Below are positions 3,357-27,001 of a DNA stretch of 32,593 nt, piece after piece. The notes under the pieces were generated by a model. The model did no database searches, had not been told where the DNA came from, and saw nothing but the letters and a program-made list of their open reading frames with translations. Source of the DNA: an uncultured Nitrospirota bacterium (GTDB lineage Bacteria; Nitrospirota; Nitrospiria; SBBL01; CAZOFZ01); NCBI GenBank assembly GCA_964592995.1, contig CAZQIT010000029.1, positions 1 through 32,593 on the forward strand, written 5' to 3'. The stretch's first letter is position 1, and each line of letters starts with the position of its first letter. The translations under genes and the position numbers were made by a program.

Positions 3357-4714
3357 TTTGGCCCCGTCTTTCGGGTGGGCGGACTTCCCACCCCCACAAG
3401 CGCGTAATGCGCTGGATTCAGATACGTTTTGGCCACACGCAGGACATCCTCCCGCGTCACGGCGCGAATAGACTGCGGATACTTTTCAAAATAATCCAGC
3501 CCCAATTGCTGGAACTCAATCGCCGCAAGCATCGCCGCAAACTTGGCCGTGCTGTCGATCCGGAGGGGAAAGCTGCCCGTGAGATACCCCTGTGTCTCCG
3601 AAAGCTCGGCCTCCGATACGAGGCCGTTCTGGATGCGTTTGATCTGGGCCAATACCGCATCGATGGCCACACCGACACTTTCATTCTTTGTCTGAAGTGA
3701 CACGGAGAACGACCCCGACATTTGCCTTGCATTAAACAAGGAGAAGATGGAGTAGACCAGCCCCTGGTTATCCCGCACGTCGGCCATCATTCGGGAAGAG
3801 AAGCCGCCTCCACCCAGAATATAATTCATGACGCTGACGGCATAATAGTCGGGATGGGCGCGGTGAATCCCCACATGCCCCAGCATCAGGGTGGCCTGCG
3901 TGAGATCCGGTTTGTCGATCCACTGTATCTCCTGTTTTTGCAGTGGCGCGGGGACCGCGCGCGTGAGGGCGGGGATGGACCCCGGCTCCCATGCCGAGAA
4001 GTATTTTTGGGCGAGGCCAACGACTTCGGCTTGCGTCACATCACCCACCACGGCCATGATGGTATTGTTGGGACGAAAGTAGGTTTTATGAAAAGTGACG
4101 ATGGCGCTCCGATCCAGCTTTCCGGCCGTCTCCTCTCGACCGATCACCGGATATTGATAGGGATGGCCCGAAAAAACAAGCTTCCGAAAGGCCCGCTCGG
4201 CCATTGCTTTAGGCTGATCCGACTCGGCCGCAATGAGGCTTAAAACGTTCCGGCGCACCCGCGCAACCTCAACTTCGCCAAAGGCGGGCGCCATCAGGAT
4301 ATCGGCCAGCAGATCCATGCCGACATCGACATCTTTTTTGAGGACTTGTAGCGTCACCGACGTGAAATCTTCTTCCGTCTCCACAGAAAGTCTGCCGCCG
4401 ATTGCGTCGATGGTTTCGGCAATCTGCGTTGCACTCCGCCGCGTCGTCCCCTGTTCCAAGAGGGATGCCGTCATATTGGCCAGCCCCGATTGCGCTTCCG
4501 GATCGCGGGCCGATCCGGCCTTGACCCGCACCTCCACACTCACGATCGGGATGGAGGAACGCGAAAGCATCAGAAGGGTTATGCCCCTGGCCGTCACAAT
4601 GCGCGTCGGCTTGATCTCGGCCGACTCGGCGCGCAGGACCAACAGGCCCATGACCCAGACGAGACAGACGAAAAGGATTAACAAATGAGTGCGGTTCATC
4701 TGTTTCCGATTCAT
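3353..4714 (-). CDS. M16 (pitrilysin/insulinase) family peptidase, probably the non-catalytic partner
   Basis: 453 aa with a signal/TM N-terminus and M16 fold-like sequence. The HxxEH position reads ANMTASLLEQGT, so the zinc motif is absent. 4-nt overlap with the preceding M16 gene. Confidence 0.75.
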   Translation of the reverse strand: MNRKQMNRTHLLILFVCLVWVMGLLVLRAESAEIKPTRIVTARGITLLMLSRSSIPIVSVEVRVKAGSARDPEAQSGLANMTASLLEQGTTRRSATQIAETIDAIGGRLSVETEEDFTSVTLQVLKKDVDVGMDLLADILMAPAFGEVEVARVRRNVLSLIAAESDQPKAMAERAFRKLVFSGHPYQYPVIGREETAGKLDRSAIVTFHKTYFRPNNTIMAVVGDVTQAEVVGLAQKYFSAWEPGSIPALTRAVPAPLQKQEIQWIDKPDLTQATLMLGHVGIHRAHPDYYAVSVMNYILGGGGFSSRMMADVRDNQGLVYSIFSLFNARQMSGSFSVSLQTKNESVGVAIDAVLAQIKRIQNGLVSEAELSETQGYLTGSFPLRIDSTAKFAAMLAAIEFQQLGLDYFEKYPQSIRAVTREDVLRVAKTYLNPAHYALVGVGSPPTRKTGPK

Positions 4715-6081
4715 GGGGCGGCTCCCTCTCCGACTTTGACTTCGGGTGCTGCGAAAGAAGCCTTCTTGGGAATGAGGATGCCGATGCTCTTGTTATCGTC
4801 GGTCAGGTATATCCTGGCAACCCGTTGAATGTCGGCGGACGTAACCTTACGGATATTTTCCACAAAATGTTCCGCAAAGGGATATCCTGCCCCCGTAGTC
4901 TCGGCCATGCCAATCTGCATCCCCCGATAAAAATTGGAATCGGCGCTCATGATCCATTTGGCCTCAATCTGGTTTTTCGCCTTCTGTATTTCCGGGTCCG
5001 AAGCTGCCTCAGATCGGACCCGCTCAATCTCGGCCTGCAGCGCAGTCTCCAATGCCGCAACGGATGTTTCCGACGCTTCTTTTGGATGGGCCATCGCGTA
5101 GAAATAGAACAAGTCCGGGTCGGTGGTCAAGCCATCGTAATGCCCGCCCGCATCTAGGGCAATCTGTTGCCGATAGACCAGGCTTTGATAGAGCCGCGTG
5201 CTCTTGCCGCCGGAGAGGATTTGCGAAAGAACCGTCAGCGGATAGAGGTCGGGGCTTTGATGGTTGGGCGCATGATAGGCCGCAAAGACAAACGGAATCT
5301 GCGCTTCGCGCGTTACCCGAAGACGACGCTCCCCGATCTGCGGCAACTCCGGAGAGACCGATTGCGAAGGAACTTCCGCAGCCTTTGGAATCGCCCCAAA
5401 CGCCTTTTTGATTTTGGGCCGCAAGGTCTGGGTGTCAAAGTCGCCGACGACAACAATCGTCGCGTTTTGTGGAATGTAATACTTTTTGTAATAACGATAG
5501 GCGTCGTCGCGAGTTAACCGATCCAGATCGCTCATCTGGCCGATGATCGGCTGGCGATAGGGATGAATCAGAAACGAAATGGCGTAGAGCTGCTCGATCA
5601 GGAAAGCGTAGGGGTCGTCGTCAGTACGGGTGCGGCGCTCCTCTTTGACCACGTCCCTCTCCAGCAAAAACTCGGCAGGATCAAGCAGCAGGTTTTGCAT
5701 CCGGTCGGCCTCCAACGCCAGCGAAAGATCAATCCGGTCGGCGGCAAAATTCTCGAAATAGGCGGTGTAATCCCGTCCGGTGAAGGCATTTTCCGTGCCG
5801 CCGTTTTTGGCCACGATCCGCGAAAATTCCCCTTTGCCATATTTCGGAGTCCCCTTGAACATCATGTGTTCGAGCAGGTGCGACAATCCACCCTGACCCG
5901 TCACCTCATTGCGGGAACCGACCTTGTACCAGACCTGAAAGGTCACCACGGGCGCCTTATGTTCTTCCATAAGGACGACCTTGAGGCCATTTTCCAGCGT
6001 AAAGGACTCCATCGTGCCCGCATGAAGATCGGACAGGACGAAGAAACCGAAGAGCAGCGTAAAGATGATTTTGCGTGTCAT
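4711..6081 (-). CDS. M16 family zinc peptidase (HxxEH present)
   Basis: Inverted zinc motif GLSHLLEHMMFKGT. Start moved to ATG 6081 (MTRKIIFTLLFGFFVL signal peptide). The 38 upstream codons of the tracked ORF merely translate the duplicated intergenic repeat. Confidence 0.85.
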   Translation of the reverse strand: MTRKIIFTLLFGFFVLSDLHAGTMESFTLENGLKVVLMEEHKAPVVTFQVWYKVGSRNEVTGQGGLSHLLEHMMFKGTPKYGKGEFSRIVAKNGGTENAFTGRDYTAYFENFAADRIDLSLALEADRMQNLLLDPAEFLLERDVVKEERRTRTDDDPYAFLIEQLYAISFLIHPYRQPIIGQMSDLDRLTRDDAYRYYKKYYIPQNATIVVVGDFDTQTLRPKIKKAFGAIPKAAEVPSQSVSPELPQIGERRLRVTREAQIPFVFAAYHAPNHQSPDLYPLTVLSQILSGGKSTRLYQSLVYRQQIALDAGGHYDGLTTDPDLFYFYAMAHPKEASETSVAALETALQAEIERVRSEAASDPEIQKAKNQIEAKWIMSADSNFYRGMQIGMAETTGAGYPFAEHFVENIRKVTSADIQRVARIYLTDDNKSIGILIPKKASFAAPEVKVGEGAAP

Positions 6082-6082
6082 G

Positions 6083-6177
6083 GCGTTTGTTTCATCCGTT
6101 TTGCAACATCGTTTTTTGAAAACGCTCCAATAGGGTGCGTGATCTGAACCCGATGCTCGGCATTTTTCGCGGATGTG
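6083..6177. repeat. direct repeat copy 1 (hscA-peptidase spacer), 95 bp
   Basis: Identical to 7192..7287 except ccaataggg vs ccaaacaggg. Contains the small palindrome cgtttt-ttg-aaaacg. Confidence 0.95.
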
Positions 6178-6210
6178 GTGTTCTCTTCTGCACAAAGAAA
6201 CAACTTATTA

Positions 6211-6231
6211 CAGCATCGGTGAGCAATGCTG
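6211..6231 (-). terminator. possible terminator hairpin after vapC
   Basis: cagcat-cggtgagca-atgctg (6-bp stem). On the minus strand it is followed by the T-rich taataagttgtttctttg. Weak stem, so tentative. Confidence 0.3.
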
Positions 6232-6296
6232 CTTTACCCCCCTCTCCTCCCCCTAATTTGCCCACAGATTCTGCTGAAGAGCCAGTAAATTGACCT

Positions 6297-6722
6297 CTAC
6301 GAGGAAAGACGCCCTTTCCTGTGGGGCTTGCCTTCAGGAGGGGAAACCGGATACAGACGTAAGTCAGAGATGGGGAAGTGGACGCGATTGTATGTAACAA
6401 TGACCATGCTGTGAATCTTTGCCGTTGCGGAGAGGAGGAGGTCTGGGAGGTCAACCGTAACCCCTTTGGCGCGCAGTGTCCGATAATACGCTGCTGCTTG
6501 ATCCGCGATTTCCGCAGTCAGATTAAAGTGTGTCAGGGCGTTTAAGAATGCTTCGGTAACTTCTCTTTCCTGTAGGCGCATTCCAGCCTTTACTTCGAAA
6601 AGGGTGATGACAGAGCAGGACAGCGTTTCTTCTCTGTGGATTTTTTGCATTAACTCCACAGTCTTACGATCTCCACGCAAAAACCAGATGATGACATCGG
6701 CATCTAAAAGCAGATCAGCCAT
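6297..6722 (-). CDS. vapC: PIN-domain toxin (VapC family)
   Basis: Start at ATG 6722 (MADLLLDADVIIWFLRGD...), a typical VapC N-terminus with conserved acidic residues. 8-nt overlap with the upstream antitoxin gene. Lower GC than the surroundings. Confidence 0.8.
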   Translation of the reverse strand: MADLLLDADVIIWFLRGDRKTVELMQKIHREETLSCSVITLFEVKAGMRLQEREVTEAFLNALTHFNLTAEIADQAAAYYRTLRAKGVTVDLPDLLLSATAKIHSMVIVTYNRVHFPISDLRLYPVSPPEGKPHRKGRLSS

Positions 6723-6987
6723 GCAGTTGCTCAATTCTCTTGCCTGTATCTTTATGGATTTCTGAAAGCTGATGATGAACATCTTTCAGGGTCGAAAGCT
6801 CTGGATACTGTGCATCTTTCCATGCCCCTGCCGCTTTCTCCATGGCCCGCGTCAAATGCTGTCGTTTTAACTCTTTCTGTGTAGCCGCTACAATAAACTC
6901 ACTCCGTTTTCTTCGGGAAACAATCTGGTCAACCATCACAAGAAGATTTTCCGGAAATACAACCTGCATTTTTATTTTTCTATCCAT
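6715..6987 (-). CDS. vapB: ribbon-helix-helix (CopG-like) antitoxin
   Basis: 90 aa. N-terminal beta-strand/helix pattern KMQVVFPENLLVMVDQIVSRRKRSEFIVAATQKELKR. Overlaps the vapC start. RBS AAGGAAG lies upstream. Confidence 0.7.
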   Translation of the reverse strand: MDRKIKMQVVFPENLLVMVDQIVSRRKRSEFIVAATQKELKRQHLTRAMEKAAGAWKDAQYPELSTLKDVHHQLSEIHKDTGKRIEQLHG

Positions 6988-6999
6988 GGTTCAGCTTCC

Positions 7000-7176
7000 T
7001 TATGTTTTATAGATTTTAGCATACCATATAGGTTGATACATATCAAGCCTTATAGGCTGTATTATCATCATGATAACCGTATCTTCAATGAGCACTGGGA
7101 CACGGGTTCCCACAAAGACCAGCGTACCGCCGAGAATCTCTGGATCACGATGAACTGCGGAAGCATTTCCACTCAT
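7000..7176 (-). pseudogene. relic of a DUF433-type antitoxin gene
   Basis: Unlisted 58-codon minus-strand ORF. It begins MSGNASAVHRDPEILGGTLVFVGTRVPVLIED, matching the DUF433 core (dP.i.gG.P.i.GTRipV). The sequence then degenerates and runs through the vapB promoter. Confidence 0.45.
7018..7046 (-). promoter_or_regulatory. cassette-internal sigma70-like promoter with palindromic operator for vapBC
   Basis: Minus strand reads TTGATA-17 nt-TATGCT, about 30 nt upstream of the vapB ATG. The -35 element is one arm of the perfect palindrome TTGATA-tg-TATCAA (7033..7046), a plausible RHH antitoxin operator. Confidence 0.5.
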
Positions 7177-7191
7177 ATCATTCTACCTATA

Positions 7192-7287
7192 GCGTTTGTT
7201 TCATCCGTTTTGCAACATCGTTTTTTGAAAACGCTCCAAACAGGGTGCGTGATCTGAACCCGATGCTCGGCATTTTTCGCGGATGTG
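7192..7287. repeat. direct repeat copy 2 (hscA-peptidase spacer), 96 bp
   Basis: See 6083..6177. Begins 21 nt downstream of the hscA stop codon. Confidence 0.95.
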
Positions 7288-7308
7288 TCGCATAACTTTT
7301 GTAATGGT

Positions 7309-8976
7309 CTATATGTCATCGACTTCTGATTCTGAAGCGTCCCCCGAAGGGGCTGCGTGGAGGGCCTGATTGATCCGCGCCTCAATCTGTGTCCGCGCGG
7401 CCATGTCGGCATGCGCATGTTGAATGGAGGCCGCAATCATCGCCTCCACTTCGTTATCGGTGAGGCCATGTGACGGCTTGATCTCTACCGACTGCACCTT
7501 TCCGCTTCGCAGCTCTTTGGCCGTCACGTTGAGCATCCCGTTCGCGTCGAGCAGAAAGGTCACCTCAATCCGGGGCGTCCCCGCCGGCATCGGATCAATG
7601 TCGGTGAGGTGAAATTTCGCCAGGCTCCGACAGTCCGCCACCAACTCCCGTTCTCCCTGCACCACATGGATCGAAACCGATTTCTGGCCGTCAACAGAGG
7701 TGGTGAAGCTCTCCTTCGCGCGGGTGGGAAGGGTCGCATTGCGCGGAATCAGCCGACTCACGACCCCCCCCAGGGTCTCAATCCCCAGAGACAAAGGGGT
7801 GACATCCAGCAGCAGCAGGTCGGTGATGCCGCCCGACAGAATGTCGGCCTGAATCGCGGCGCCCAGCGCCACGACCTCGTCGGGATTCAATTCGCAATGG
7901 GGGGTTCTTGAAAAAAAATCGGAGACCGCCTGTCGCACAAGTGGCATCCGGGTGGATCCCCCCACCAGCACGACCTCATCAATCTGTGCGGTCGAAAGAT
8001 GCGCGTCAGACACCGCATGACGGCAGCAAGCAATGGTCTGATTGATCAACCCCTGTATGAGCGCTTCAAACTCGACCCGCGTCAGTGTGCGACGATAGTC
8101 GATCTGTAGGTCGGGAATCGTCAGATGTATCTCCGTGGCTGGTTGTTCACTGAGTTGACACTTGGCCCCCTCTGCAGCCAGGCGCACAGCCTGGAGCGCT
8201 CCGGCACGACCGGTACGACCGGTACGACCGGTGCGAGTGGGATCGGATAAGAGATCGACACCGAACTGTTGCTGGATTTCAGAAAAAAAGAGGGCCGCCA
8301 GACGTTGGTCAATGTCGTCTCCGCCCAGATGGGTGTCTCCGTGGGTGGCGAGGACTTCAAAAATGCCGTTTTTGATCTTGAGGATCGAAATGTCGAATGT
8401 GCCACCGCCGAAGTCGTAGACGGCAATCGTCCCCTCCGACTTTCTCTGAAGTCCGTAGGCCAGCGAGGCCGCCGTCGGCTCATTCACGATACGGAGCACT
8501 TCCAGACCGGCAATCCGTCCCGCATCCTTCGTGGCCTGACGCTGGCTGTCGTTGAAGTAGGCCGGCACCGTGATGACCGCCTGCGTAATCTGTTTTTGAA
8601 GGAACGTCTCGGCCTGGACTTTTAGCGTCCTGAGGATGATTGCGGAGATTTCCGGCGGGGTATAGGTCTGCCCAGCAACCTCAATCCGAATGACCGCGTC
8701 GCCCGACAGTCGGAACGGAATGAACTTTCGATCCTGGCCAATCTCGTCGATTCCCTTCCCCATCAATCGCTTGATGGAATAGAGGGTGCGGTCGGCATGG
8801 GTCAAAAGCGCCCGTTTTGCCCGCTCTCCGGCGACCGGCGTATCCCCTTCGAAGGTTACGACAGAGGGCACCATTCCGCGCCCCTGGGCATCCGGAATGA
8901 TGCGGGGCGTACCCCGGTCCATATAGGCCACCAAGCTGTTCGTGGTTCCCAAATCAATCCCGACAATCATCTTCAC
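7309..8976 (-). CDS. hscA: Fe-S cluster assembly Hsp70 chaperone HscA
   Basis: 555 aa. Hsp70 signatures [21 protein letters not shown] and [11 protein letters not shown]. Sits after hscB within the isc operon. Confidence 0.9.
8202..8237. repeat. 9-bp tandem repeat x4 inside hscA
   Basis: cggcacgac / cggtacgac / cggtacgac / cggtgcgag. Encodes [13 protein letters not shown] in-frame. Confidence 0.9.
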
Positions 8977-9705: not shown

Positions 9706-10170
9706 TTACGGCCCTGCTGCTTTCTGTTGTTTTGAAAACAGGAAGAAAGAGACGGTCAACAGAACAATCGCGCCAGCGTTCAGCCCGATGTCCCACAGAT
9801 ACTGGTTGAACTCGGAGAGGCTCATTACTTCCGTGAGACCATGGTGAGGCCCGGCGGCCAAGATGCGCCGGACGGAGGCAATAATCCCGATATAGAAAAA
9901 AGGCTCCAGACGAAGGGTGCGGACCTTGAGATAGTTGATGATCGTGCCGAGTACTTCCAGGATGATCAGGGCGATCAGGGTCTCGCCGATGAGCGCGAAG
10001 ATCGATTTCAGGGGCGACTCTAAAACATGACGAAAGAACTCCGTCCACGCGAAGAAGAACGCGGCCACCAGCAGAAAAATCAGGGCGACGGCAATCACCA
10101 CGTAAATTGCGCGATCGCCGCGCTCCAGCCAGCCGATCACCTTGGCATCGAAAGGCGTCTTCGTTTCCAT
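9706..10170 (-). CDS. PsiE-like integral membrane protein
   Basis: 154 aa with about 4 hydrophobic segments. The stretch LEVLGTIINYLKVRTLRLEPFFYIGIIASVRRIL resembles the conserved PsiE core (F.YIGI.A.VR.I). Confidence 0.55.
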   Translation of the reverse strand: METKTPFDAKVIGWLERGDRAIYVVIAVALIFLLVAAFFFAWTEFFRHVLESPLKSIFALIGETLIALIILEVLGTIINYLKVRTLRLEPFFYIGIIASVRRILAAGPHHGLTEVMSLSEFNQYLWDIGLNAGAIVLLTVSFFLFSKQQKAAGP

Positions 10171-15513: not shown

Positions 15514-17631
15514 ATGAATAACATCCACAAAAAGGGCAAACGCGTCGCCGAACTCTTCGTGGAGGTTGGCGTGGAGGAGATGCCGTCGGGCGTGATGGCC
15601 GACACGCTCCGGCAGTTGCGGGAGACGAGCGAGCGGCGACTTGCTGCCGATGCCCTGCCGTTTGATTCGGTGCAGACCTTCGGGACCCCTCGAAGGCTTA
15701 TTCTGGTTGTCTTCGCGCTGGCCGCGACGCAGACGACGCGCGCCACGCAGGTGATTGGCCCGCCCAAACGCGCAGCCTTTGACGCCGCAGGTCACCCGAC
15801 GCCCGCCGCCATCGGCTTTGCCAAATCGCAGGGGGTGGCGGTGGAGGCGCTTGCGGTGATCCAGACGGAAAAGGGGGAATATCTCGCCGTCGAAAAGACG
15901 ACGCCAGGCCAGCCGACGGCGGCGCGCCTCCCGATCCTGCTTCCCGAAATCCTTGCCAGCCTGACCTTCCCAAAGTCGATGCGCTGGAATGAGACCGCCG
16001 TGGCCTTTGCCCGCCCCATCCGGTGGATCGTGGCAATGTACGACGGCCAGCTTGTCCCATTCCAATATGCGGGCGTTGCTTCCGGCGACCTCTCGCGCGG
16101 CCACCGCATCCTCTCGCCAAAGCCTTTCCGCGTCACCACGTTCGCCACGTATCAAAAGGAGATGGCGCGGCGACAGGTTGTGATCGACCCAAAAGCCCGC
16201 TACGACCAGATTGTTGCCGAGATGGCCGCGCTGGCCGATGCGGCAGGCGGGATCGTGAAGGGGGACGACGACCTGCTCTGGCAGGCGGCATGGACCACGG
16301 AGTATCCAAGAGCACTCTGCGGGGCGTTTGACCCCCCGTTTCTGGACTTGCCGCCGGAGGTCATCACCACGGTGATGAAGGAGCATCAGGGCTACTTCCC
16401 GCTGTACGAAAACAAAGAAGGCGGGAAACTGCTGCCGGCGTTTATCACGATTGCAAACATTCAGGCCAGCGACATGGATGTGATCCGCCGGGGCAACGAA
16501 CGGGTCTTGCGCGCCCGCCTGGTGGACGCCCGCTTTTATTACGATCAGGATCGGAAGGTGAAACTGGCCGACCGGGTAGACGCCCTCCGGCAGGTGACGT
16601 TTCAGGAAAAACTGGGCACGCTGCACGACAAGATCGAACGGGTGGCTGGGCTGTCTCTTGTCTTGGCGCAAACCGTGCCGAACGCGCCGCCGGAGGCGCT
16701 GCTCCGCGCCGCACTCCTTTATAAATGTGACCTGCTGACGGGCGTGGTGCGAGAGTTCCCGTCGCTTCAGGGGGTGATGGGGCGGATTTATGCCCTCCGT
16801 GATGGGGAGTCTTCCGATGTGGCCGCCGCCATCGAGGCACATTACCGGCCCCGCTTTGCCGGGGATGTGCTGCCGACCGACCCCGTCGGACGTTACTTGT
16901 CGGTTGCCGATAAACTGGACACGATTGTGGGCTGCTTCGGTGTGGGCCTCATCCCCAGCGGTTCCGAAGACCCCTACGCCCTGCGGCGACAGGGGATGGG
17001 CGTGGTGCAGATTTTGGCGGTCCGTGGAGTGAAGAATGGCGCGATTATTGCCGCAGCCGTGCAGCAATACGAAAAACAGGACAAGTTTTCCGGTGCGGGG
17101 GTGGCCGAGGCGGTGGGCGAATTCCTGAAAGGCCGGATGGCGTCGTGGCTTCAGGCCCGTGACATGCGGCATGATCTGGTTCACGCCGTCTTAAACCGGC
17201 CCGGCCTGTCGGCTGCGCAGTTCCCAGACGATCTCTGTGGTACAATGGCGCGCGTCGAGGCCCTGGTTCGGGCCGCAGGGCAGCCCCACTTTGACCGGCT
17301 TCTAACCGGGGTAAAACGGGCCAGCCGCATCCTGCCTGCGGGATTTTCCGGCGAGGTCGATCCGGGGTGGATCAAAGACGAGCCGGAGGTGGCGCTCTTT
17401 GACGCAGTTGTTGAGGCCGAAACAGCGATAGACCAGGATCAGAAACAGCAGTTCAACGCGGTTTTGCAGACACTGGCGGCGTTGGCGGAGCCGCTGGCTT
17501 GCTTCTTCGACGGTGTCTTGGTGATGGCCCCCGACGAGACCCTCCGCCGCAATCGTCTGGGCCTGCTTTTGCGGGTGCGCCGCCTGTTTGACCGCGTCGC
17601 CGACTTCTCCAAAATCGAAGGCGGGGGATGA
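15514..17631 (+). CDS. glyS: glycine--tRNA ligase beta subunit
   Basis: 705 aa. N-terminus LFVEVGVEEMP, GTPRRL, and a C-terminal anticodon-binding region. No glyQ is adjacent. Confidence 0.9.
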   Translation: MNNIHKKGKRVAELFVEVGVEEMPSGVMADTLRQLRETSERRLAADALPFDSVQTFGTPRRLILVVFALAATQTTRATQVIGPPKRAAFDAAGHPTPAAIGFAKSQGVAVEALAVIQTEKGEYLAVEKTTPGQPTAARLPILLPEILASLTFPKSMRWNETAVAFARPIRWIVAMYDGQLVPFQYAGVASGDLSRGHRILSPKPFRVTTFATYQKEMARRQVVIDPKARYDQIVAEMAALADAAGGIVKGDDDLLWQAAWTTEYPRALCGAFDPPFLDLPPEVITTVMKEHQGYFPLYENKEGGKLLPAFITIANIQASDMDVIRRGNERVLRARLVDARFYYDQDRKVKLADRVDALRQVTFQEKLGTLHDKIERVAGLSLVLAQTVPNAPPEALLRAALLYKCDLLTGVVREFPSLQGVMGRIYALRDGESSDVAAAIEAHYRPRFAGDVLPTDPVGRYLSVADKLDTIVGCFGVGLIPSGSEDPYALRRQGMGVVQILAVRGVKNGAIIAAAVQQYEKQDKFSGAGVAEAVGEFLKGRMASWLQARDMRHDLVHAVLNRPGLSAAQFPDDLCGTMARVEALVRAAGQPHFDRLLTGVKRASRILPAGFSGEVDPGWIKDEPEVALFDAVVEAETAIDQDQKQQFNAVLQTLAALAEPLACFFDGVLVMAPDETLRRNRLGLLLRVRRLFDRVADFSKIEGGG

Positions 17632-17636
17632 CGGCG
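17559..17636. repeat. direct repeat copy 1 (functional glyS 3' end plus 5 nt)
   Basis: 17571..17636 is identical over 66 bp to 18211..18276. Similarity extends leftward to 17559/18198, with cttttg vs ctactcg between. Confidence 0.95.
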
Positions 17637-17942
17637 GATGCGCTCATACGAATCAAACGCGTCGTTCTTGCTGGAAGGTATGCCTTTAGCGAAAAGGCGC
17701 GTTTGGAAATGGAGGCGGACGGTCTCGCCGAGATGGACGTCGCCGAGTCGATTCTCAATGCTGTTGCGATTTACAAGAAGATCCGATCACGGAGTCCGTT
17801 TCGTCGCGGGACAAGCGAATACCTCTATGTCATTCAAAGCGTCAATCTGGAGGGTTTGGCCATCTACACCAAAGGGAAATTGGTGCGAGAGATGGACGAA
17901 GATGTCTACTACTTTCTCGTCTCATCCAAGCGCGCCTTGTAA
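17628..17942 (+). CDS. MqsR-like (or DUF4258-like) toxin
   Basis: 104 aa. IKRVVLAGRYAFSEKARLEMEADGLAEMDVAESILNAV aligns by eye with the MqsR N-terminal region. Toxin-first gene order with a Zn-ribbon partner. The ATG overlaps the glyS TGA (ATGA). Confidence 0.55.
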   Translation: MTADALIRIKRVVLAGRYAFSEKARLEMEADGLAEMDVAESILNAVAIYKKIRSRSPFRRGTSEYLYVIQSVNLEGLAIYTKGKLVREMDEDVYYFLVSSKRAL

Positions 17943-17955
17943 AGGGTAAGTACTG

Positions 17956-18198
17956 ATGAACATCATACAATGCCCAACGTGTGGCAGTGATCAAATAAAA
18001 AAGGTCCGTCGAGATTGGACCAGCACGTATCAAGGCAAGAGATACCGGGTTCCCAATCTGGAATATTATGACTGCCCCGATTGCGGCGAGAAGGTGTATG
18101 ATCGGCAAGCGATGCAAAAAATCGCGGCCTATTCGCCCGCGTATGCCGGACGGCAGGAGACACCGGTTTGGGTGAACCCTCCCGCAATGGCAGGCTAG
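17956..18198 (+). CDS. YgiT-type zinc-ribbon protein (MqsA N-terminal-domain-like antitoxin, no HTH domain)
   Basis: 80 aa. CPTCGS...(30 aa)...CPDCGEKVYD is the MqsA/YgiT zinc-finger pattern. Lies immediately downstream of the toxin-like gene. Confidence 0.6.
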   Translation: MNIIQCPTCGSDQIKKVRRDWTSTYQGKRYRVPNLEYYDCPDCGEKVYDRQAMQKIAAYSPAYAGRQETPVWVNPPAMAG

Positions 18199-18276
18199 GG
18201 CCTGCTACTCGCGGGTGCGCCGCCTGTTTGACCGCGTCGCCGACTTCTCCAAAATCGAAGGCGGGGGATGACGGCG
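18198..18276. repeat. direct repeat copy 2 (non-functional duplicate of the glyS 3' end)
   Basis: See 17559..17636. Starts at the last base of the Zn-ribbon gene stop codon. Confidence 0.95.
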
Positions 18277-18352
18277 CGGCCCGGCCGCTGGGAATAATCG
18301 GCGTGCCTGCCGCGTTGCGGCGTCATGATCCATCTGATTAAGGAGTAGAAAC

Positions 18353-18556
18353 ATGTTATCACTGGAGTTGCAGCCAGAGACGCTTCTTTTTCCACGTGGC
18401 GTGTTTGAAACGGCAGAGACGAAGGAAGACTTGGAAGATTGGCTTGTGTCGCAAAACCCCGCCTTCTTAAAACGAATGCGGAGGGCCAAGCGCAGTGACC
18501 TTCAGGGTCATGGCAAGGACTGGTCCCAGGTCAAAGAAGAGCAATGTATCGCGTAA
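18353..18556 (+). CDS. putative antitoxin of the downstream RelE/ParE toxin
   Basis: 67 aa, acidic, preceded by RBS AAGGAG. 13-nt overlap with the toxin gene. C-terminal LEDWLVSQNPAFLKRMRRAKRSD resembles many small antitoxins. Confidence 0.5.
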   Translation: MLSLELQPETLLFPRGVFETAETKEDLEDWLVSQNPAFLKRMRRAKRSDLQGHGKDWSQVKEEQCIA

Positions 18557-18825
18557 TTTTCCTGCCCGATGCGGAAGAATCGTTTAAGAAACTGGACAAA
18601 TCAATCCGATTAAAAGTTGCCGACAAGATCGACTGGATGCAAGAGAATGCGGATCAAGTCATCCATCATCCGCTCACGTCGTTGCCGGACGATCTTCGGG
18701 GGTTATGCCGGATGCGCGTGGGCGATTATCGGGTGCTTTATTGGGTTTATGCTCGACGAAAACAGATTACTGTGTATGGGATTGAGCACAGAAGCCAAGT
18801 CTATCGCCCGCTGAAAAGGAAGTGA
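18544..18825 (+). CDS. RelE/ParE-family toxin
   Basis: 93 aa. MYRVIFLPDAEESFKKLDKSIRLKV ... LCRMRVGDYRVLYWV ... ITVYGIEHRSQVY is the classic RelE/ParE pattern. Confidence 0.8.
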   Translation: MYRVIFLPDAEESFKKLDKSIRLKVADKIDWMQENADQVIHHPLTSLPDDLRGLCRMRVGDYRVLYWVYARRKQITVYGIEHRSQVYRPLKRK

Positions 18826-18863
18826 TGAGTAGCGACGTAAGGGCCCCGTTAAGCCCAGGAGAT

Positions 18864-18999
18864 CAATGCTGACCAAACTCCAAATCGAAAACTTTCGCTG
18901 TTTTCGCCAGTTGACGGTCGATCCGCTCAAGCGGATTAACCTGATCTGCGGCCAAAACAACAGCGGGAAAACGGCCCTGCTGGAGGCGCTGTTCGCCCT
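18864..18999. repeat. direct repeat copy 1 (ATPase 5' end, truncated copy)
   Basis: About 136 bp and about 96% identical to 19507..19642. This copy keeps the native AGGAG RBS (18857..18861). Confidence 0.95.
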
Positions 19000-19048
19000 T
19001 TTCCAAGATCGAAGGCGGGAGATCGTGAAGATGAATGGGAGGTCCTGA
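18866..19048 (+). pseudogene. truncated duplicate of the ATPase N-terminus (Walker A only) fused to 16 unrelated codons
   Basis: [45 protein letters not shown] equals residues 1-45 of the 19509 ORF with a single K/R change. It then reads [15 protein letters not shown] and stops. Confidence 0.85.
18999..19023. repeat. relic of the glyS 3' end at the left edge of the hicBA insert
   Basis: ttttccaagatcgaaggcgggagat vs glyS 17605..17629 ttctccaaaatcgaaggcgggggat, 22 of 25 identical. In another frame it still reads FSKIEGG. Confidence 0.85.
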
Positions 19049-19254
19049 TGCAATTTACAATCACAATGGACCGTGATGAAGATGGCGTTTGGATTACCGA
19101 ATGCCCCTCTATCCCGGGCTGTGTCAGTCAAGGGACAAGCAAGGAAGAGGCGCTAAACAACATTAAAGAAGCGATCCAATCATGTTTAGAGGTCCGCGCT
19201 GAACGTGGACTTCCCTTGACGATAGAAACCCGGCAGGTGGCGGTGGTGGTTTAA
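19048..19254 (+). CDS. hicB: HicB-family (UPF0150) antitoxin
   Basis: 68 aa. FTITMDRDEDGVWITECPSIPGCVSQGTSKEEALNNIKEAI is the canonical HicB N-domain. TGATG overlap with the preceding ORF. Confidence 0.75.
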   Translation: MQFTITMDRDEDGVWITECPSIPGCVSQGTSKEEALNNIKEAIQSCLEVRAERGLPLTIETRQVAVVV

Positions 19255-19484
19255 TGCCGCCATTACCGACACTGCGTGGTCGCGATGTGGTTCGAGTTTT
19301 TGAAAGGTTCGGATGGAACGTTGTACGACAGGAAGGCAGTCACATTATTATGGTCAAGGTGGGACACATCGCGACACTGTCCATTCCAAACCATAAAGAA
19401 GTCGCGAAGGGGACATTGCGCAGCCTCATCCGTTCGTCCGATCTGACTGTCGCCGAATTTACCGAAATATTGAGAACCGTTTAA
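19254..19484 (+). CDS. hicA: HicA-family (YcfA-like) mRNA interferase toxin
   Basis: 76 aa. LRGRDVVRVFERFGWNVVRQEGSHIIM ... IPNHKEVAKGTLRSLIR. TAATG overlap with hicB. Confidence 0.8.
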   Translation: MPPLPTLRGRDVVRVFERFGWNVVRQEGSHIIMVKVGHIATLSIPNHKEVAKGTLRSLIRSSDLTVAEFTEILRTV

Positions 19485-19506
19485 GGCGCAGACGCCACAC
19501 CCTATC

Positions 19507-19642
19507 CAATGCTGACCCGACTCCAAATCGAAAACTTTCGCTGCTTCCGCCAGTTGACGGTCGATCCGCTCAAGCGGATTAACCTGATCTGCGGCCAAAA
19601 CAACAGCGGGAAAACGGCCCTGCTGGAGGCGTTGTTCGCTCT
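19507..19642. repeat. direct repeat copy 2 (5' end of the intact ATPase gene)
   Basis: See 18864..18999. No Shine-Dalgarno sequence lies upstream of this copy. Confidence 0.95.
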
Positions 19643-20495
19643 ACCGCGTCCCCAAGAGGGCAGCAAGATGCCTGAATTACTCCACACGTTCCGCGTCCAG
19701 TCATCTGGTCCTTCTGCTGAGGATGTGTCTTGCTTGTTTTATGACAAGGACAAAAACGCCATGGTTAACATTACCGGCTGGATGGATCAGTCTCCCATTG
19801 GCGTAGAGGTTCGGTACGCCTCACAACCAGAACCATCCGTGGCGTCATCCGATAACACAGCATGGCAACCAAACAGGATCATCATCAACTCAGAGGGCCT
19901 ATTCCAGAGAACCCATTATTCAGGGGCGGGGTATAAAGTTCGTGTATTTCCAGCGCATTCTTCCAAGCCAGAAGAAGACACGTGGGACTTTAGTAGGGCC
20001 ATTCTCAAAAAGCAGAAAGATCGGATTGCGAAACTGATGGGCAAAATTGAACCTCGTTTGGTCTCAATTGAAGCGTTGCAGATTGATCGTAATCGCCCTC
20101 CGCGACTGTACGCCGACATGGGCTTGAGGGAGATGATTCCGATTACACACCTCGGGCAGGGGTTTGGGCGATTGCTCAACATCTACTCGGGGATTTTGGT
20201 GGAAGATGCCAACGTGCTGTTGATCGACGAGATTGAGAACGGCCTTCACCACAGCGTGTTGCCGACGGCGTGGAAAGGGCTGATGGCTGCGGCGCGGGAC
20301 ATCGGCGTCCAAATTTTTGCCACGACCCACAGTTGGGAGTGCATCCGTGCCGCAAACGCGGTGGTCAACGAGGCCGGAGACAGCGACGACTTCCAGGTGA
20401 TCCGTCTGGACCGCATCGGAGACGACATCAAGTCCACGACCATTGATAAAGAAATGATTGAGACGGCAAAGGAATTCAATCTGGAAATGCGTTAA
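19509..20495 (+). CDS. ABC/SMC-type P-loop ATPase (AAA_15/AAA_21-like, defence-island type)
   Basis: 328 aa. Walker A GQNNSGKT, signature-like HLGQGFGRLL, Walker B VLLIDEIENGLH, H-loop FATTHS. No fused nuclease domain was recognised. Confidence 0.75.
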   Translation: MLTRLQIENFRCFRQLTVDPLKRINLICGQNNSGKTALLEALFALPRPQEGSKMPELLHTFRVQSSGPSAEDVSCLFYDKDKNAMVNITGWMDQSPIGVEVRYASQPEPSVASSDNTAWQPNRIIINSEGLFQRTHYSGAGYKVRVFPAHSSKPEEDTWDFSRAILKKQKDRIAKLMGKIEPRLVSIEALQIDRNRPPRLYADMGLREMIPITHLGQGFGRLLNIYSGILVEDANVLLIDEIENGLHHSVLPTAWKGLMAAARDIGVQIFATTHSWECIRAANAVVNEAGDSDDFQVIRLDRIGDDIKSTTIDKEMIETAKEFNLEMR

Positions 20496-20610
20496 CGGTT
20501 AAATGGGTTCTTTGTGCGATGTGATGGGTTGTCGATCCATCAAGCAAAAAGAAGGAGCGGATATGACGCAGGATTTGCAACAGATGTCGGTAAATTGAGG
20601 AGTACTGGAC

Positions 20611-26394: not shown

Positions 26395-26693
26395 AACGGG
26401 AACTTGAAGGCGGTCTTCTAATAGAACGGGGTAGGGAGAGGGCAATGGGGGTTCGGACTCCATCTGAAGCGGAGCAACACAAAGGCCTCTTGGCGGAGGT
26501 AGAGAAATGGAGTCCGGAGGACCGCCTTGATTTGATCGGGGCTGTGTGGGACACCCTTCTGTCCGATGACCTTCTGCTTACGCAGGAGGAGAAGGTGCTT
26601 TTGGATGAGCGATTGGAAGACCTTCATGTCAATCCCGCAGCGCAGAGTCCTTGGCCTGCGGTGAAGGCACGGCTTGCACAGCGACGGCGATGA
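26391..26693 (+). CDS. putative addiction-module antitoxin (TIGR02574 / Unstab_antitox-like)
   Basis: [20 protein letters not shown]...[34 protein letters not shown] is the characteristic pattern. ATG 26391 overlaps the aminotransferase TGA; alternative start at ATG 26445. Confidence 0.6.
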
Positions 26694-27001
26694 AAGCAGA
26701 TGTCGTCTTCCGGAAAGCGGCGGAGCGGGACGTGGAACGGATTGAAGATTGGTATGAGCGTCGGCGGCCCGGCCTGGGCGATGCATTCCGGGAGGCGCTG
26801 GGAGAGGCCGTTGACCAGATTGCTTCCAGGCCCTTGATGTATCCTGCGCTGTATCAGGAAAATCGCCGTGTCTTGCTCCATCGGTTCCCCTACAAACTGT
26901 GGTATCGCCTCGAAGGCAAAGGGGTGATTGTGTTGGCGTGTATCCACGGGAAGCGCCGTCCTCAGTATGAAAGGACGAGGCTTCGGCGTCGGCTATCCTG
27001 A
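26690..27001 (+). CDS. RelE/ParE-family toxin
   Basis: [22 protein letters not shown]...ALGEAVDQIASRPLMYPA...RRVLLHRFPYKLWYRLEGKGVIVLACIHGKRRP. ATGA overlap with the antitoxin stop. Confidence 0.75.
   Translation: MKADVVFRKAAERDVERIEDWYERRRPGLGDAFREALGEAVDQIASRPLMYPALYQENRRVLLHRFPYKLWYRLEGKGVIVLACIHGKRRPQYERTRLRRRLS

Follow-up and report, generated by a model that had tools for sequence, protein, structure and literature searches.

The closest described parallel to the inserts analyzed here is insertion with long target duplication, in which R-M gene complexes lie between direct repeats of 46–423 bp and carry no mobility genes (Nobusato et al. 2000, Gene 259:99; Furuta, Abe & Kobayashi 2010, PMC2853133). 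Furuta et al. 2010 recognized such events by flanking direct repeats of more than 30 bp, an insert shorter than 20 kb without integrase, transposase, or prophage genes, one repeat copy at the empty site, a repeat that is unique, and the presence of R and M homologues. Long flank duplications also arise in the laboratory: in an E. coli conjugation screen for homology-facilitated illegitimate recombination (HFIR), single crossovers of re-circularised DNA accounted for 56 of 60 recombinants and left the homologous segment duplicated over 109–950 bp (PMC3240628). In Vibrio cholerae, T6SS effector-immunity arrays show sequential displacement of modules via HFIR, and the same study cites orphan arrays of Rhs and CDI systems (PMC5361080). 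How chromosomal TA modules that lack mobility genes enter housekeeping operons is poorly understood.

Here, we analyzed a single metagenome contig of a Nitrospirota bacterium, 32,593 nt long (the window), which contains three long flank duplications. All three bracket TA cassettes, four cassettes in total, while the same duplication scan returned none in 863 kb of related sequence covering 87 loci. Our main reading, to which we assign a probability of roughly 0.55, is that the vapBC pair between hscA and an M16 peptidase gene is a horizontally acquired type II TA module that probably entered through host recombination via flanking homology rather than by means of a transposase. The features of this locus, with the closest relative designated L081, are:

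4711..6081, minus strand: M16 peptidase gene, the first of a pair, downstream of R1
6080..6177, no strand assigned: R1, repeat copy 1, directly 5' of the M16 peptidase start codon
6178..6296, minus strand: tail of 119 nt that separates R1 from the vapC stop, without conservation at other vapBC loci
6297..6722, minus strand: vapC, PIN-domain toxin of 141 aa, assigned by Pfam, NCBIfam, and residue conservation
6715..6987, minus strand: antitoxin gene, 90 aa, overlapping vapC by 8 nt, the pair being kept in relatives
7000..7176, minus strand: DUF433 N-terminal relic, family-like over about its first 28–34 codons and not over the rest
7018..7088, minus strand: candidate vapBC promoter/operator with two sigma-70-like matches and a 6+6 palindrome
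7189..7287, no strand assigned: R2, repeat copy 2, 21 nt past the hscA stop and 12 nt 5' of the DUF433-relic ATG
7309..8976, minus strand: truncated hscA, aligning to residues 1–523 only of L081 HscA

Direct alignment bears out the coordinates, orientation, and sequence given for the repeat, hereafter R, in a preliminary description of this DNA. The two copies lie in direct orientation and share exact blocks of 48 nt (6083–6130 and 7192–7239) and 46 nt (6132–6177 and 7242–7287), which are split by a TA/ACA difference (one copy reads CCAATAGGG, the other CCAAACAGGG). Adding AT carries the match to 6080 and 7189, yielding 96 identities in 99 alignment columns and repeat lengths of 98 and 99 nt that are ~97% identical. 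Each half of R occurs exactly twice in the window, with 0 occurrences expected from 100 shuffles. Copy 1 had been placed 1 nt from the M16 ATG and copy 2 21 nt past the hscA stop, and both placements hold; the start codon (CAT on the forward strand, 6079–6081) is backed by the N-terminus of the L081 orthologue and the hscA stop lies at 7309–7311. The lower GC of the ~1.0-kb insert was likewise reproduced, the value for 6178–7188 being 0.463 as compared to 0.574 for the contig and 0.547–0.589 for the flanking genes. It is important to note that R itself has a GC of 0.469 and in this respect resembles the insert and not the host genes, which counts against entry through host flank homology.

Between the R copies lie 1,011 bp in which an intact antitoxin–VapC(PIN) pair is accompanied by a DUF433 relic and by sequence resembling a promoter/operator. 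VapC matches PF01850 (E=3.6e-12) and the NCBIfam VapC model (E=2.3e-12, under that model's equivalog cut-off), and its residues D7, E43, and D94 are invariant across six relatives. The two-gene layout of antitoxin and vapC recurs at three related loci (L082, L083, L084), at which the antitoxin is 64–67% identical at the amino acid level. The antitoxin has no Pfam match, its single-sequence AF2 model (pLDDT 62) was too low in confidence for a structure search, and a profile match to the RHH N-terminus of the EndoAI antitoxin 4me7_E (E about 0.1) weakly suggests that it may have an RHH fold. Based on the PIN toxin and the overlapping, co-conserved antitoxin, we predict that the cassette functions as a VapBC-family type II TA module. 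The DUF433 relic covers profile positions 2–21 of 56 with 22.5 bits, slightly below the 23.6-bit cut-off. Of the cargo proposed in the preliminary description, vapC therefore stands, the DUF433 relic stands as an N-terminal fragment only, and the RHH antitoxin stays at the strength of its E-value of about 0.1. Similarly, the insert had been credited with its own promoter and operator: promoter-like hexamers do exist at 7088–7061 and 7046–7018 on the minus strand and the TTGATAcaTATCAA palindrome at 7033–7046 overlaps one −35 element, but the promoter scan was not above background, with 4 sites found versus 1.9 ± 1.3 expected. Exact-protein look-ups returned no recorded match for the peptidase, VapC, or the antitoxin.

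The organization of the hscA–peptidase junction in the closest relative changes how the insertion has to be understood. L081 (74–75% amino acid identity) is the sole relative that shares the hscA–M16 adjacency, and hscA was found within 6 kb upstream of M16 relatives at 0 of 80 species-representative loci. In L081, hscA encodes 603 aa and overlaps the peptidase ATG (ATGA), leaving no spacer and no R-like sequence. HscA in the window follows the HSP70 profile only as far as position 533 of 599, such that the last ~80 residues are missing, and the 17 codons at 7312–7362 that precede the stop are unrelated sequence. Because HscA is truncated and L081 has no spacer, the vapBC event would have included a deletion of ~240 nt rather than being a clean insertion into a spacer, and the proposal that R represents the original hscA–peptidase spacer, present on both sides of the cassette, is not upheld. 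A loss of this kind is usual for illegitimate joins. The insertion would have cost the Fe-S chaperone HscA its C-terminal lid and uncoupled its translation from that of the peptidase genes. We also considered that R might be the decayed hscA 3' end and rejected this idea: local nucleotide alignment of R to the L081 tail scored at shuffle level (17 versus 15.8 ± 2.5), tblastn was empty, the lost tail is encoded nowhere else on the contig, and a 13/16 match of AACGGATGAAACAAAC to AACTGATGAACCAGAC is put down to chance.

An empty site consisting of hscA, one copy of R, and the peptidase gene, which the preliminary description had suggested searching for, was not found among relatives, of which only the spacer-less L081 is syntenic; this result, too, counts against the recombination reading. 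R was absent from the metagenome and viral contigs in exact 24-mer and 33-mer scans, nothing R-like was present in more than 120 related loci, the whole element had no blastn match in plasmids or phages, and no collection that was searched contained a near-identical strain.

One alternative is that the cassette inserted without any duplication and that R was copied later, by template switching or gene conversion, to a position before the peptidase gene or the cassette and was kept because it restored expression signals lost with the hscA coupling. In favor of such an in-situ event, any insertion at a junction in which the peptidase start overlaps the hscA stop, as in L081, disrupts the coupling, the end of R1 coincides with the peptidase ATG, and the about 97% identity of the copies suggests that the event was recent. 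Scans of R, however, revealed no promoter-like site or clear ribosome-binding site. Moreover, a dispersed, non-tandem copy of 97 nt is a rare type of event, and the signature at the second locus of the contig would be left unexplained, the duplicated pieces there being coding fragments without regulatory value. We consider this alternative quite unlikely. The duplication may also, as the preliminary description had suggested, leave one copy of any spacer signal in front of the cassette and another in front of the peptidase genes; scans of R revealed no promoter-like site, terminator, or Rfam match, and its folding was not significantly better than that of shuffles (z = −1.35 as RNA and −0.78 as DNA), giving no sign of a structured RNA.

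The second locus lies between glyS and an ATPase gene and contributes the two further long flank duplications, one of the glyS 3' end (66–79 nt) and one of the ATPase 5' end (136 nt), which surround MqsRA-like, RelE/ParE, and HicBA cassettes. Its features, all on the plus strand, are:

17559..17636, plus strand: S1, the genuine glyS 3' end, with the stop at 17629–17631, single-copy in relatives
17628..18198, plus strand: cassette A, a 104-aa ORF without a family match, which in our own reading may be MqsR-like, and an MqsA/YgiT zinc-ribbon antitoxin-like ORF
18198..18276, plus strand: S1', second copy of the glyS 3' end, 79 nt overall, its final 66 nt 100% identical to S1
18353..18825, plus strand: cassette B, a 67-aa ORF and a RelE/ParE-family toxin
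18864..18999, plus strand: S2', copy of the ATPase 5' end (−2 to +134), from 18864 identical to S2 at 130 of 136 positions (96%)
18998..19023, plus strand: S1'', third copy of the glyS 3' end, diverged (23/26) and directly adjoining S2'
19048..19484, plus strand: cassette C, HicB-like antitoxin and HicA toxin
19507..19642, plus strand: S2, the genuine ATPase 5' end, belonging to an AAA_15/AAA_21 ATPase gene at 19509–20495

In related genomes, the site 3' of glyS is empty (L089, L090), holds one small ORF (L091), or contains just one TA pair, of a different kind, ahead of the same ATPase gene (L088); in these four, the glyS 3' end is single-copy, with 82–94% nucleotide identity. A search for other alleles by way of metagenome ATPase relatives returned only one close locus (L092), which has neither glyS nor TA genes. 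In a codon comparison of S2' with S2 that addressed a possible allelic origin of the ATPase 5' copy, five of the six differing codons are synonymous, a raw count that is suggestive, but three of the changes, when polarised with L088, fall on the lineage of the functional copy, where selection would filter them in any case. Separately, a ParE cassette at 26445–27001 showed no flank repeats on check.

At the junction 18999|19000, the copy of the ATPase 5' end is joined to a copy of the glyS 3' end with an overlap of only about 2 nt, so that sequence from the right flank precedes sequence from the left flank. Because a staggered cut followed by fill-in cannot give this right-to-left order, the permuted junction argues for recombination through flank homology. 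As read from the sequence, the order is consistent with a circularised allele fragment or with an unequal join of two alleles. Throughout the contig, the cassette-proximal edges of the duplications lie 0–5 nt from a start or stop codon, which is where alleles would cease to be homologous, while the distal edges are arbitrary and lie inside genes.

The same junction speaks against a true target-site duplication of unusual length, in which a trans-acting enzyme or repair would introduce nicks with a spacing of about 97 nt, into which a linear cassette would be ligated, and fill-in would duplicate the target. The structure of the vapBC locus, taken alone, fits this scheme, no mobility gene is needed in cis, and the R-M literature, which proposes double-strand breakage, leaves the option open (PMC2853133). 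Beyond the permuted S2'–S1'' junction, which it cannot yield, the lengths of the duplications on the contig vary (26, 66–79, 97, and 136 nt) and the vapBC event was accompanied by the hscA deletion. PIN, RelE/ParE, and HicA are RNase-type toxin families; because all toxins here belong to such families, the cargo cannot itself supply the DNA breaks. We therefore regard a long target-site duplication as most improbable.

A further alternative is that R and S1 are att sites of elements without an integrase of their own, comparable to CIME or integron cassettes, which accumulated in tandem through a recombinase encoded elsewhere. The same 26-nt core of the glyS 3' end precedes each of cassettes A, B, and C, integration into the 3' end of a gene with restoration of that end by the element is typical of integrases, and TA cassettes are common in chromosomal integrons. 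However, transposase or integrase domains were found neither in contig ORFs of at least 90 aa nor in the small cassette ORFs, and the 32.6-kb contig contains no tRNA that could be a target, no tmRNA, and no Rfam family. Inspection of R revealed no RYYYAAC/GTTRRRY core sites, and R folds no better than shuffles. Terminal inverted repeats were not present at the cassettes, nor inverted repeats in 6100–7300. R, S1, and S2 share no common core, with scores at chance level, which makes the action of one site-specific recombinase unlikely, and the att model leaves the 136-nt ATPase fragment within the array unexplained. Altogether, we find site-specific recombination a very unlikely origin for the repeats.

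Because all observations come from one metagenome contig, and one that is unusually rich in such repeats, we also considered that strain variants, or a small circle sharing R, were merged into a single path during assembly. The R copies, however, differ internally, and each variant is thus tied to both of its own flanks at any k of at least 49. In addition, the sources of the 18999|19000 junction share only about 2 nt, and k-mer overlap cannot produce such a junction; the outer flanks are syntenic with L081 (hscB–hscA–M16a–M16b) and L088 (glyS…ATPase…ppdK); and it is hard to envisage a 1.1-kb circle that lacks a replication gene. An assembly artefact thus appears highly improbable to us.

Returning to entry of the vapBC module through flanking homology, two routes may be envisaged. 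In one, a fragment carrying the cassette and about 97 nt of the upstream flank of the peptidase gene would circularise and integrate by a single (Campbell-type) crossover. In the other, a linear fragment would undergo homologous recombination on one side and an illegitimate join on the other. Either route would place one copy of the homologous segment at either end of the insert. Repeated action of this process at the glyS–ATPase hot spot would have stacked three TA cassettes, originally alternatives to one another at a single site, and the addictive nature of TA modules may help to retain the inserts. We infer the crossover and the circular or linear intermediate from the structures left behind: flank duplication is present at R, S1, and S2, and the permuted junction expected from circularisation is present at the glyS–ATPase locus only. 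Since the vapBC locus has no permuted junction, the mechanism there is borrowed by analogy from the glyS locus. Because direct repeats flank the cassette, RecA-dependent excision or amplification should be possible.

We speculate further, in full awareness that the idea is rather unlikely to be correct, that small TA cassettes of this Nitrospirota lineage spread and pile up by a cycle that is independent of a recombinase. The repeats would recombine and release a circle composed of the cassette and one flank copy, which would re-integrate through a single crossover at any site with homology to the flank, also in sister strains that take up the DNA, and this would be the general mechanism of insertion with long target duplication. 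If true, the cycle would explain a class of insertions that has been unexplained since 2000, would not require a nuclease among the cargo, and would represent a distinct mode of mobility of addiction modules.

The significance of the contig lies in its four TA cassettes between long duplications of the insertion site, and in the one permuted junction that records the joining of two occupants of a shared site. Should further genomes and sequencing reads bear out the pattern, the long-target-duplication class would extend from R-M to TA systems, and the duplication could be argued to come from host recombination rather than from a DNA-cutting cargo. Two predictions would then be open to testing by PCR, namely circles released by excision and alleles that retain only one copy of the repeat.

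How, then, do these inserts compare to known systems? The features by which integron cassettes, IS elements and transposons, and att-type integrative elements are recognized were not found at the contig inserts. Integron cassettes are alike in size (about 0.5–1 kb), in often being TA pairs with their own promoters, and in being separated by repeats of about 60–140 nt; unlike in integrons, there is here no intI, no attC core site, and no significant hairpin, the second-locus repeats duplicate host coding sequence, and the different repeat families show no relationship to one another. As in the target-site duplications of IS elements and transposons, direct repeats of target DNA surround the insert, but the repeat (97 nt) is, as the preliminary description had correctly emphasized, far longer than the 2–15 bp made by these elements, the domain search of the contig ORFs returned no mobility gene, and neither terminal inverted repeats nor a transposase accompany the cassettes.

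As in E. coli single-crossover integration (PMC3240628), the insert lies between direct duplications of a homologous segment and no dedicated recombinase is needed, although that system was an engineered laboratory plasmid, whereas here the cassettes are natural, the event is reconstructed, and the homology is shorter (26–136 nt). In the T6SS arrays, modules arrive at a conserved anchor gene, earlier ones are displaced downstream, gene-end remnants are left, and related strains carry alternative alleles, much as we propose for glyS; classical HFIR, in contrast, is an insertion plus a deletion without duplication, and the arrays hold immunity genes rather than complete TA pairs.

The event is not without precedent: long target duplication is documented for R-M systems (PMC2853133). 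On the contig, the repeats exceed 30 bp (R, 98/99 nt; S1/S1', 79 nt; S2'/S2, 136 nt), and the inserts are small (0.5–1.0 kb), with no mobility domain in contig ORFs. The glyS repeat is single-copy in L088–L091, while R is absent from L081, the sole syntenic relative; R is present in two copies in the contig and in none of the metagenome, viral, plasmid, and phage collections. In place of R and M homologues, the cargo comprises a PIN toxin–antitoxin pair and MqsA-like, RelE/ParE, and HicAB genes, and these RNase-type toxins lack the DNA-breakage property that the authors invoked. Also unlike in R-M insertions, three cassettes are stacked at one site and one flank junction is permuted. Both kinds of insert consist of a small addictive gene pair between long direct repeats without a linked transposase or integrase, and in both, the GC of the insert is unlike that of the host and insertion is often at gene ends. 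R, with its two copies on the contig, may likewise share the genome-wide uniqueness of the R-M repeats. Because their cargo is TA and not R-M, we conclude that the contig inserts are a variant of the long-target-duplication class rather than a member of it.

The window, an entire metagenome contig of 32,593 nt from a Nitrospirota bacterium near the Manganitrophaceae, carries a vapBC insert that lies between two direct copies of a repeat, R, at the junction of hscA and two M16 peptidase genes.

Features of the vapBC locus
9683-8973, minus, hscB
8976-7309, minus, hscA
7287-7189, repeat copy R2, between hscA and the DUF433 relic
7176-7000, minus, DUF433 N-terminal relic
6987-6715, minus, antitoxin gene, 90 aa
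6722-6297, minus, vapC
119-nt tail, between vapC and R1
6177-6080, repeat copy R1, between the tail and the M16 peptidase genes
6081-4711 and 4714-3353, minus, two M16 peptidase genes

The copies share 48 exact nt, then differ (TA/ACA), then share 46 exact nt, and each of these two exact blocks has just two occurrences on the contig, against an expectation of zero. The GC content is 0.46 in the R1-R2 insert compared with 0.55-0.59 in the adjoining genes; R itself (0.469) resembles the insert. Because the repeat alignment, copy counts and insert GC all agree, we confirm the repeat as placed and described in the preliminary description. VapC belongs to the PIN proteins and retains the conserved acidic residues; the antitoxin gene overlaps vapC by 8 nt and the pair is kept together in other genomes. 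The suggested RHH fold of the antitoxin is tentative. Nucleotide homology with other vapBC loci is confined to the two coding regions (~6316-6984), and R, the DUF433 relic and the 119-nt tail had no such homology in the loci compared.

The source genome is a singleton across all collections searched, with the closest peptidase at 74-76% identity and the closest VapC at 69%. A search of relatives yielded no empty site with a single R, and hscA lay upstream of the M16 relatives in none of 80 species-representative loci. The sole syntenic relative, ENA contig L081, has the order hscB-hscA-M16a-M16b, and because the stop codon of its 603-aa HscA overlaps the peptidase start (ATGA), there is no spacer. 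The HscA of the window aligns only to residues 1-523 of L081 HscA, covers 1-533 of the 599 positions of the HSP70 profile (L081, 1-598) and ends in 17 unrelated codons (7309-7362 including the stop). Judged against L081 and this profile, it lacks ~80 C-terminal residues (the helical lid); the function of this Fe-S chaperone may be impaired, or the lid may be dispensable for it. The missing tail is encoded nowhere else on the contig and does not resemble R. Relative to L081, ~240 nt of hscA are replaced by ~1.28 kb (6082-7362), so that a deletion was part of the vapBC insertion event. The long flank duplication stands as observed and, in part, as interpreted; R may have been either host spacer or imported DNA.

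Also within hscA, about four tandem copies of a CCGGTACGA-like 9-nt unit (8201-8236) encode TGRTGRTGR, part of a 12-aa insertion missing from L081 HscA. In the operon for Fe-S cluster assembly, hscB is separated from the iscA-like gene by a gene for a PsiE-family membrane protein (9706-10170).

A repeat scan of the whole contig revealed two further long duplications in direct orientation, each at a gene junction, in an array between glyS and an ATPase gene.

Features of the glyS-ATPase locus
17559-17636, S1, glyS 3' end, first in the array
between S1 and S1', cassette A, 104-aa ORF and MqsA/YgiT-like zinc-ribbon ORF
18198-18276, S1', second glyS 3' end, last 66 nt identical to S1
between S1' and S2', cassette B, 67-aa ORF and RelE/ParE toxin
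18864-18999, S2', duplicated 5' end (first 134 nt) of the ATPase gene that lies downstream, 96% identical to S2
18998-19023, S1'', third, diverged glyS 3' end (23/26), directly fused to S2'
between S1'' and S2, cassette C, HicB and HicA
from 19507, S2, start of the real ATPase gene (AAA_15/AAA_21)

Thus, at 17559-19642 each of three stacked toxin-antitoxin (TA) cassettes (MqsRA-like, RelE/ParE-type and HicBA) is bracketed by duplicated glyS 3' ends and/or ATPase 5' ends. The same scan found three long flanking repeat pairs in this 32.6-kb contig versus none in 87 related loci (863 kb). The evidence base is one metagenome contig, without reads or close relatives; still, an assembly artefact is an unlikely source of the R copies and novel junctions because the R copies differ internally and the junctions are impossible from k-mer overlap. 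A chimeric 60-aa ORF (18866-19048), joining the ATPase N-terminus with its Walker A motif (GQNNSGKT) to glyS 3'-end-derived sequence, is probably a rearrangement by-product.

Relatives show the glyS-downstream site to be a variable hot spot: L089 and L090 have nothing there (glyS, 57 nt, ppdK), L091 has one small ORF, and L088 has one TA pair of a different kind, with the homologous ATPase gene after it. The glyS 3' end occurs once in each of L088-L091, so that at this locus the repeated sequence is single-copy where the site is unoccupied. A DUF3226 gene follows the AAA_15 ATPase gene in relatives (L088, 9686-11229; L092, 1486-3050), so that the pair resembles a two-gene module and may be a defence system; in the window (19509-20593) the ATPase is present and the partner absent. 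A fifth TA pair (26445-27001; TIGR02574/Unstab_antitox antitoxin and ParE toxin), lodged between the genes for an aminotransferase and homoserine dehydrogenase, has no long flanking repeat, and small TA pairs (ParE-type, DUF4258-type) inside a cytochrome c gene cluster of related Nitrospirota (L088, 526-2054; L089, 1548-2064) likewise have no long flank duplications.

The S2'-S1'' junction (18999|19000) is diagnostic for the mechanism: the right-flank copy comes first and the left-flank copy directly after it, with only ~2 nt common to both sources where they meet. Staggered cutting followed by fill-in is unable to yield this order. It does result when two alleles of the same site are joined, or when a fragment running from the glyS 3' end through a cassette into the ATPase gene is circularised and integrates by one crossover. 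Pointing in the same direction, each of the three duplications has its cassette-side edge 0-5 nt from a start or stop codon, where alleles would cease being homologous, with distal edges at arbitrary positions; the three repeat families have no common core motif; and the contig carries neither a recombinase nor a tRNA, and no terminal inverted repeats. When S2' was tested by codon position for an origin as an allele, five of six differing codons were synonymous, a count that is suggestive at most: polarised with L088, three of the changes fall in the lineage of the functional copy, where selection would filter them in any case. In E. coli experiments, re-circularised DNA that integrated by a single crossover left the homologous segment duplicated over 109-950 bp, and such events were much more frequent than true homology-facilitated illegitimate recombination (HFIR; PMC3240628). 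For T6SS effector-immunity and Rhs arrays, sequential displacement of an HFIR-like kind has been put forward (PMC5361080). The vapBC locus itself has neither a permuted junction nor, in relatives, an empty site with a single R copy, and the mechanism is carried over to it by analogy. Based on the permuted junction, the edges, the lack of a common core and the experimental precedent, we put at slightly better than even (roughly 0.55) the probability that the vapBC cassette integrated through ~97 nt of flank homology, which would have involved either a Campbell-type crossover or a homologous exchange on one side and an illegitimate join on the other. The glyS-ATPase locus on the same contig favours such recombination.

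On the features tested, IS/Tn insertion, an integron cassette and an att-flanked integrase element do not fit the vapBC locus. In an unrelated low-GC metagenome contig (L103), three copies of a 94-nt internally palindromic repeat (598-691, 2898-2991 and 3490-3583) separate an HTH/REase-like gene and C5-methyltransferase pair, an ORF of 173 aa and a gene for an AAA ATPase, an arrangement that resembles an array of attC-like or MITE-like cassettes. Restriction-modification (R-M) systems are known to insert with long target duplication, leaving 46-423 bp repeats without mobility genes, mostly in naturally competent hosts; the mechanism is unexplained, and DNA breakage by the cargo was suggested as a possible common cause (PMC2853133). 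The structure of the vapBC locus matches this class, the cargo being TA modules instead of R-M systems. Because the toxins of this contig belong to RNase-type families, the cargo cannot be the cause of DNA breakage here. In a full-text literature search, no paper applied the concept to TA modules, and where TA reviews cite it, they do so for R-M systems alone. The pattern, which is unusual and open to testing, is best classed as a variant, with TA cargo, of this known but mechanistically unexplained type of insertion.
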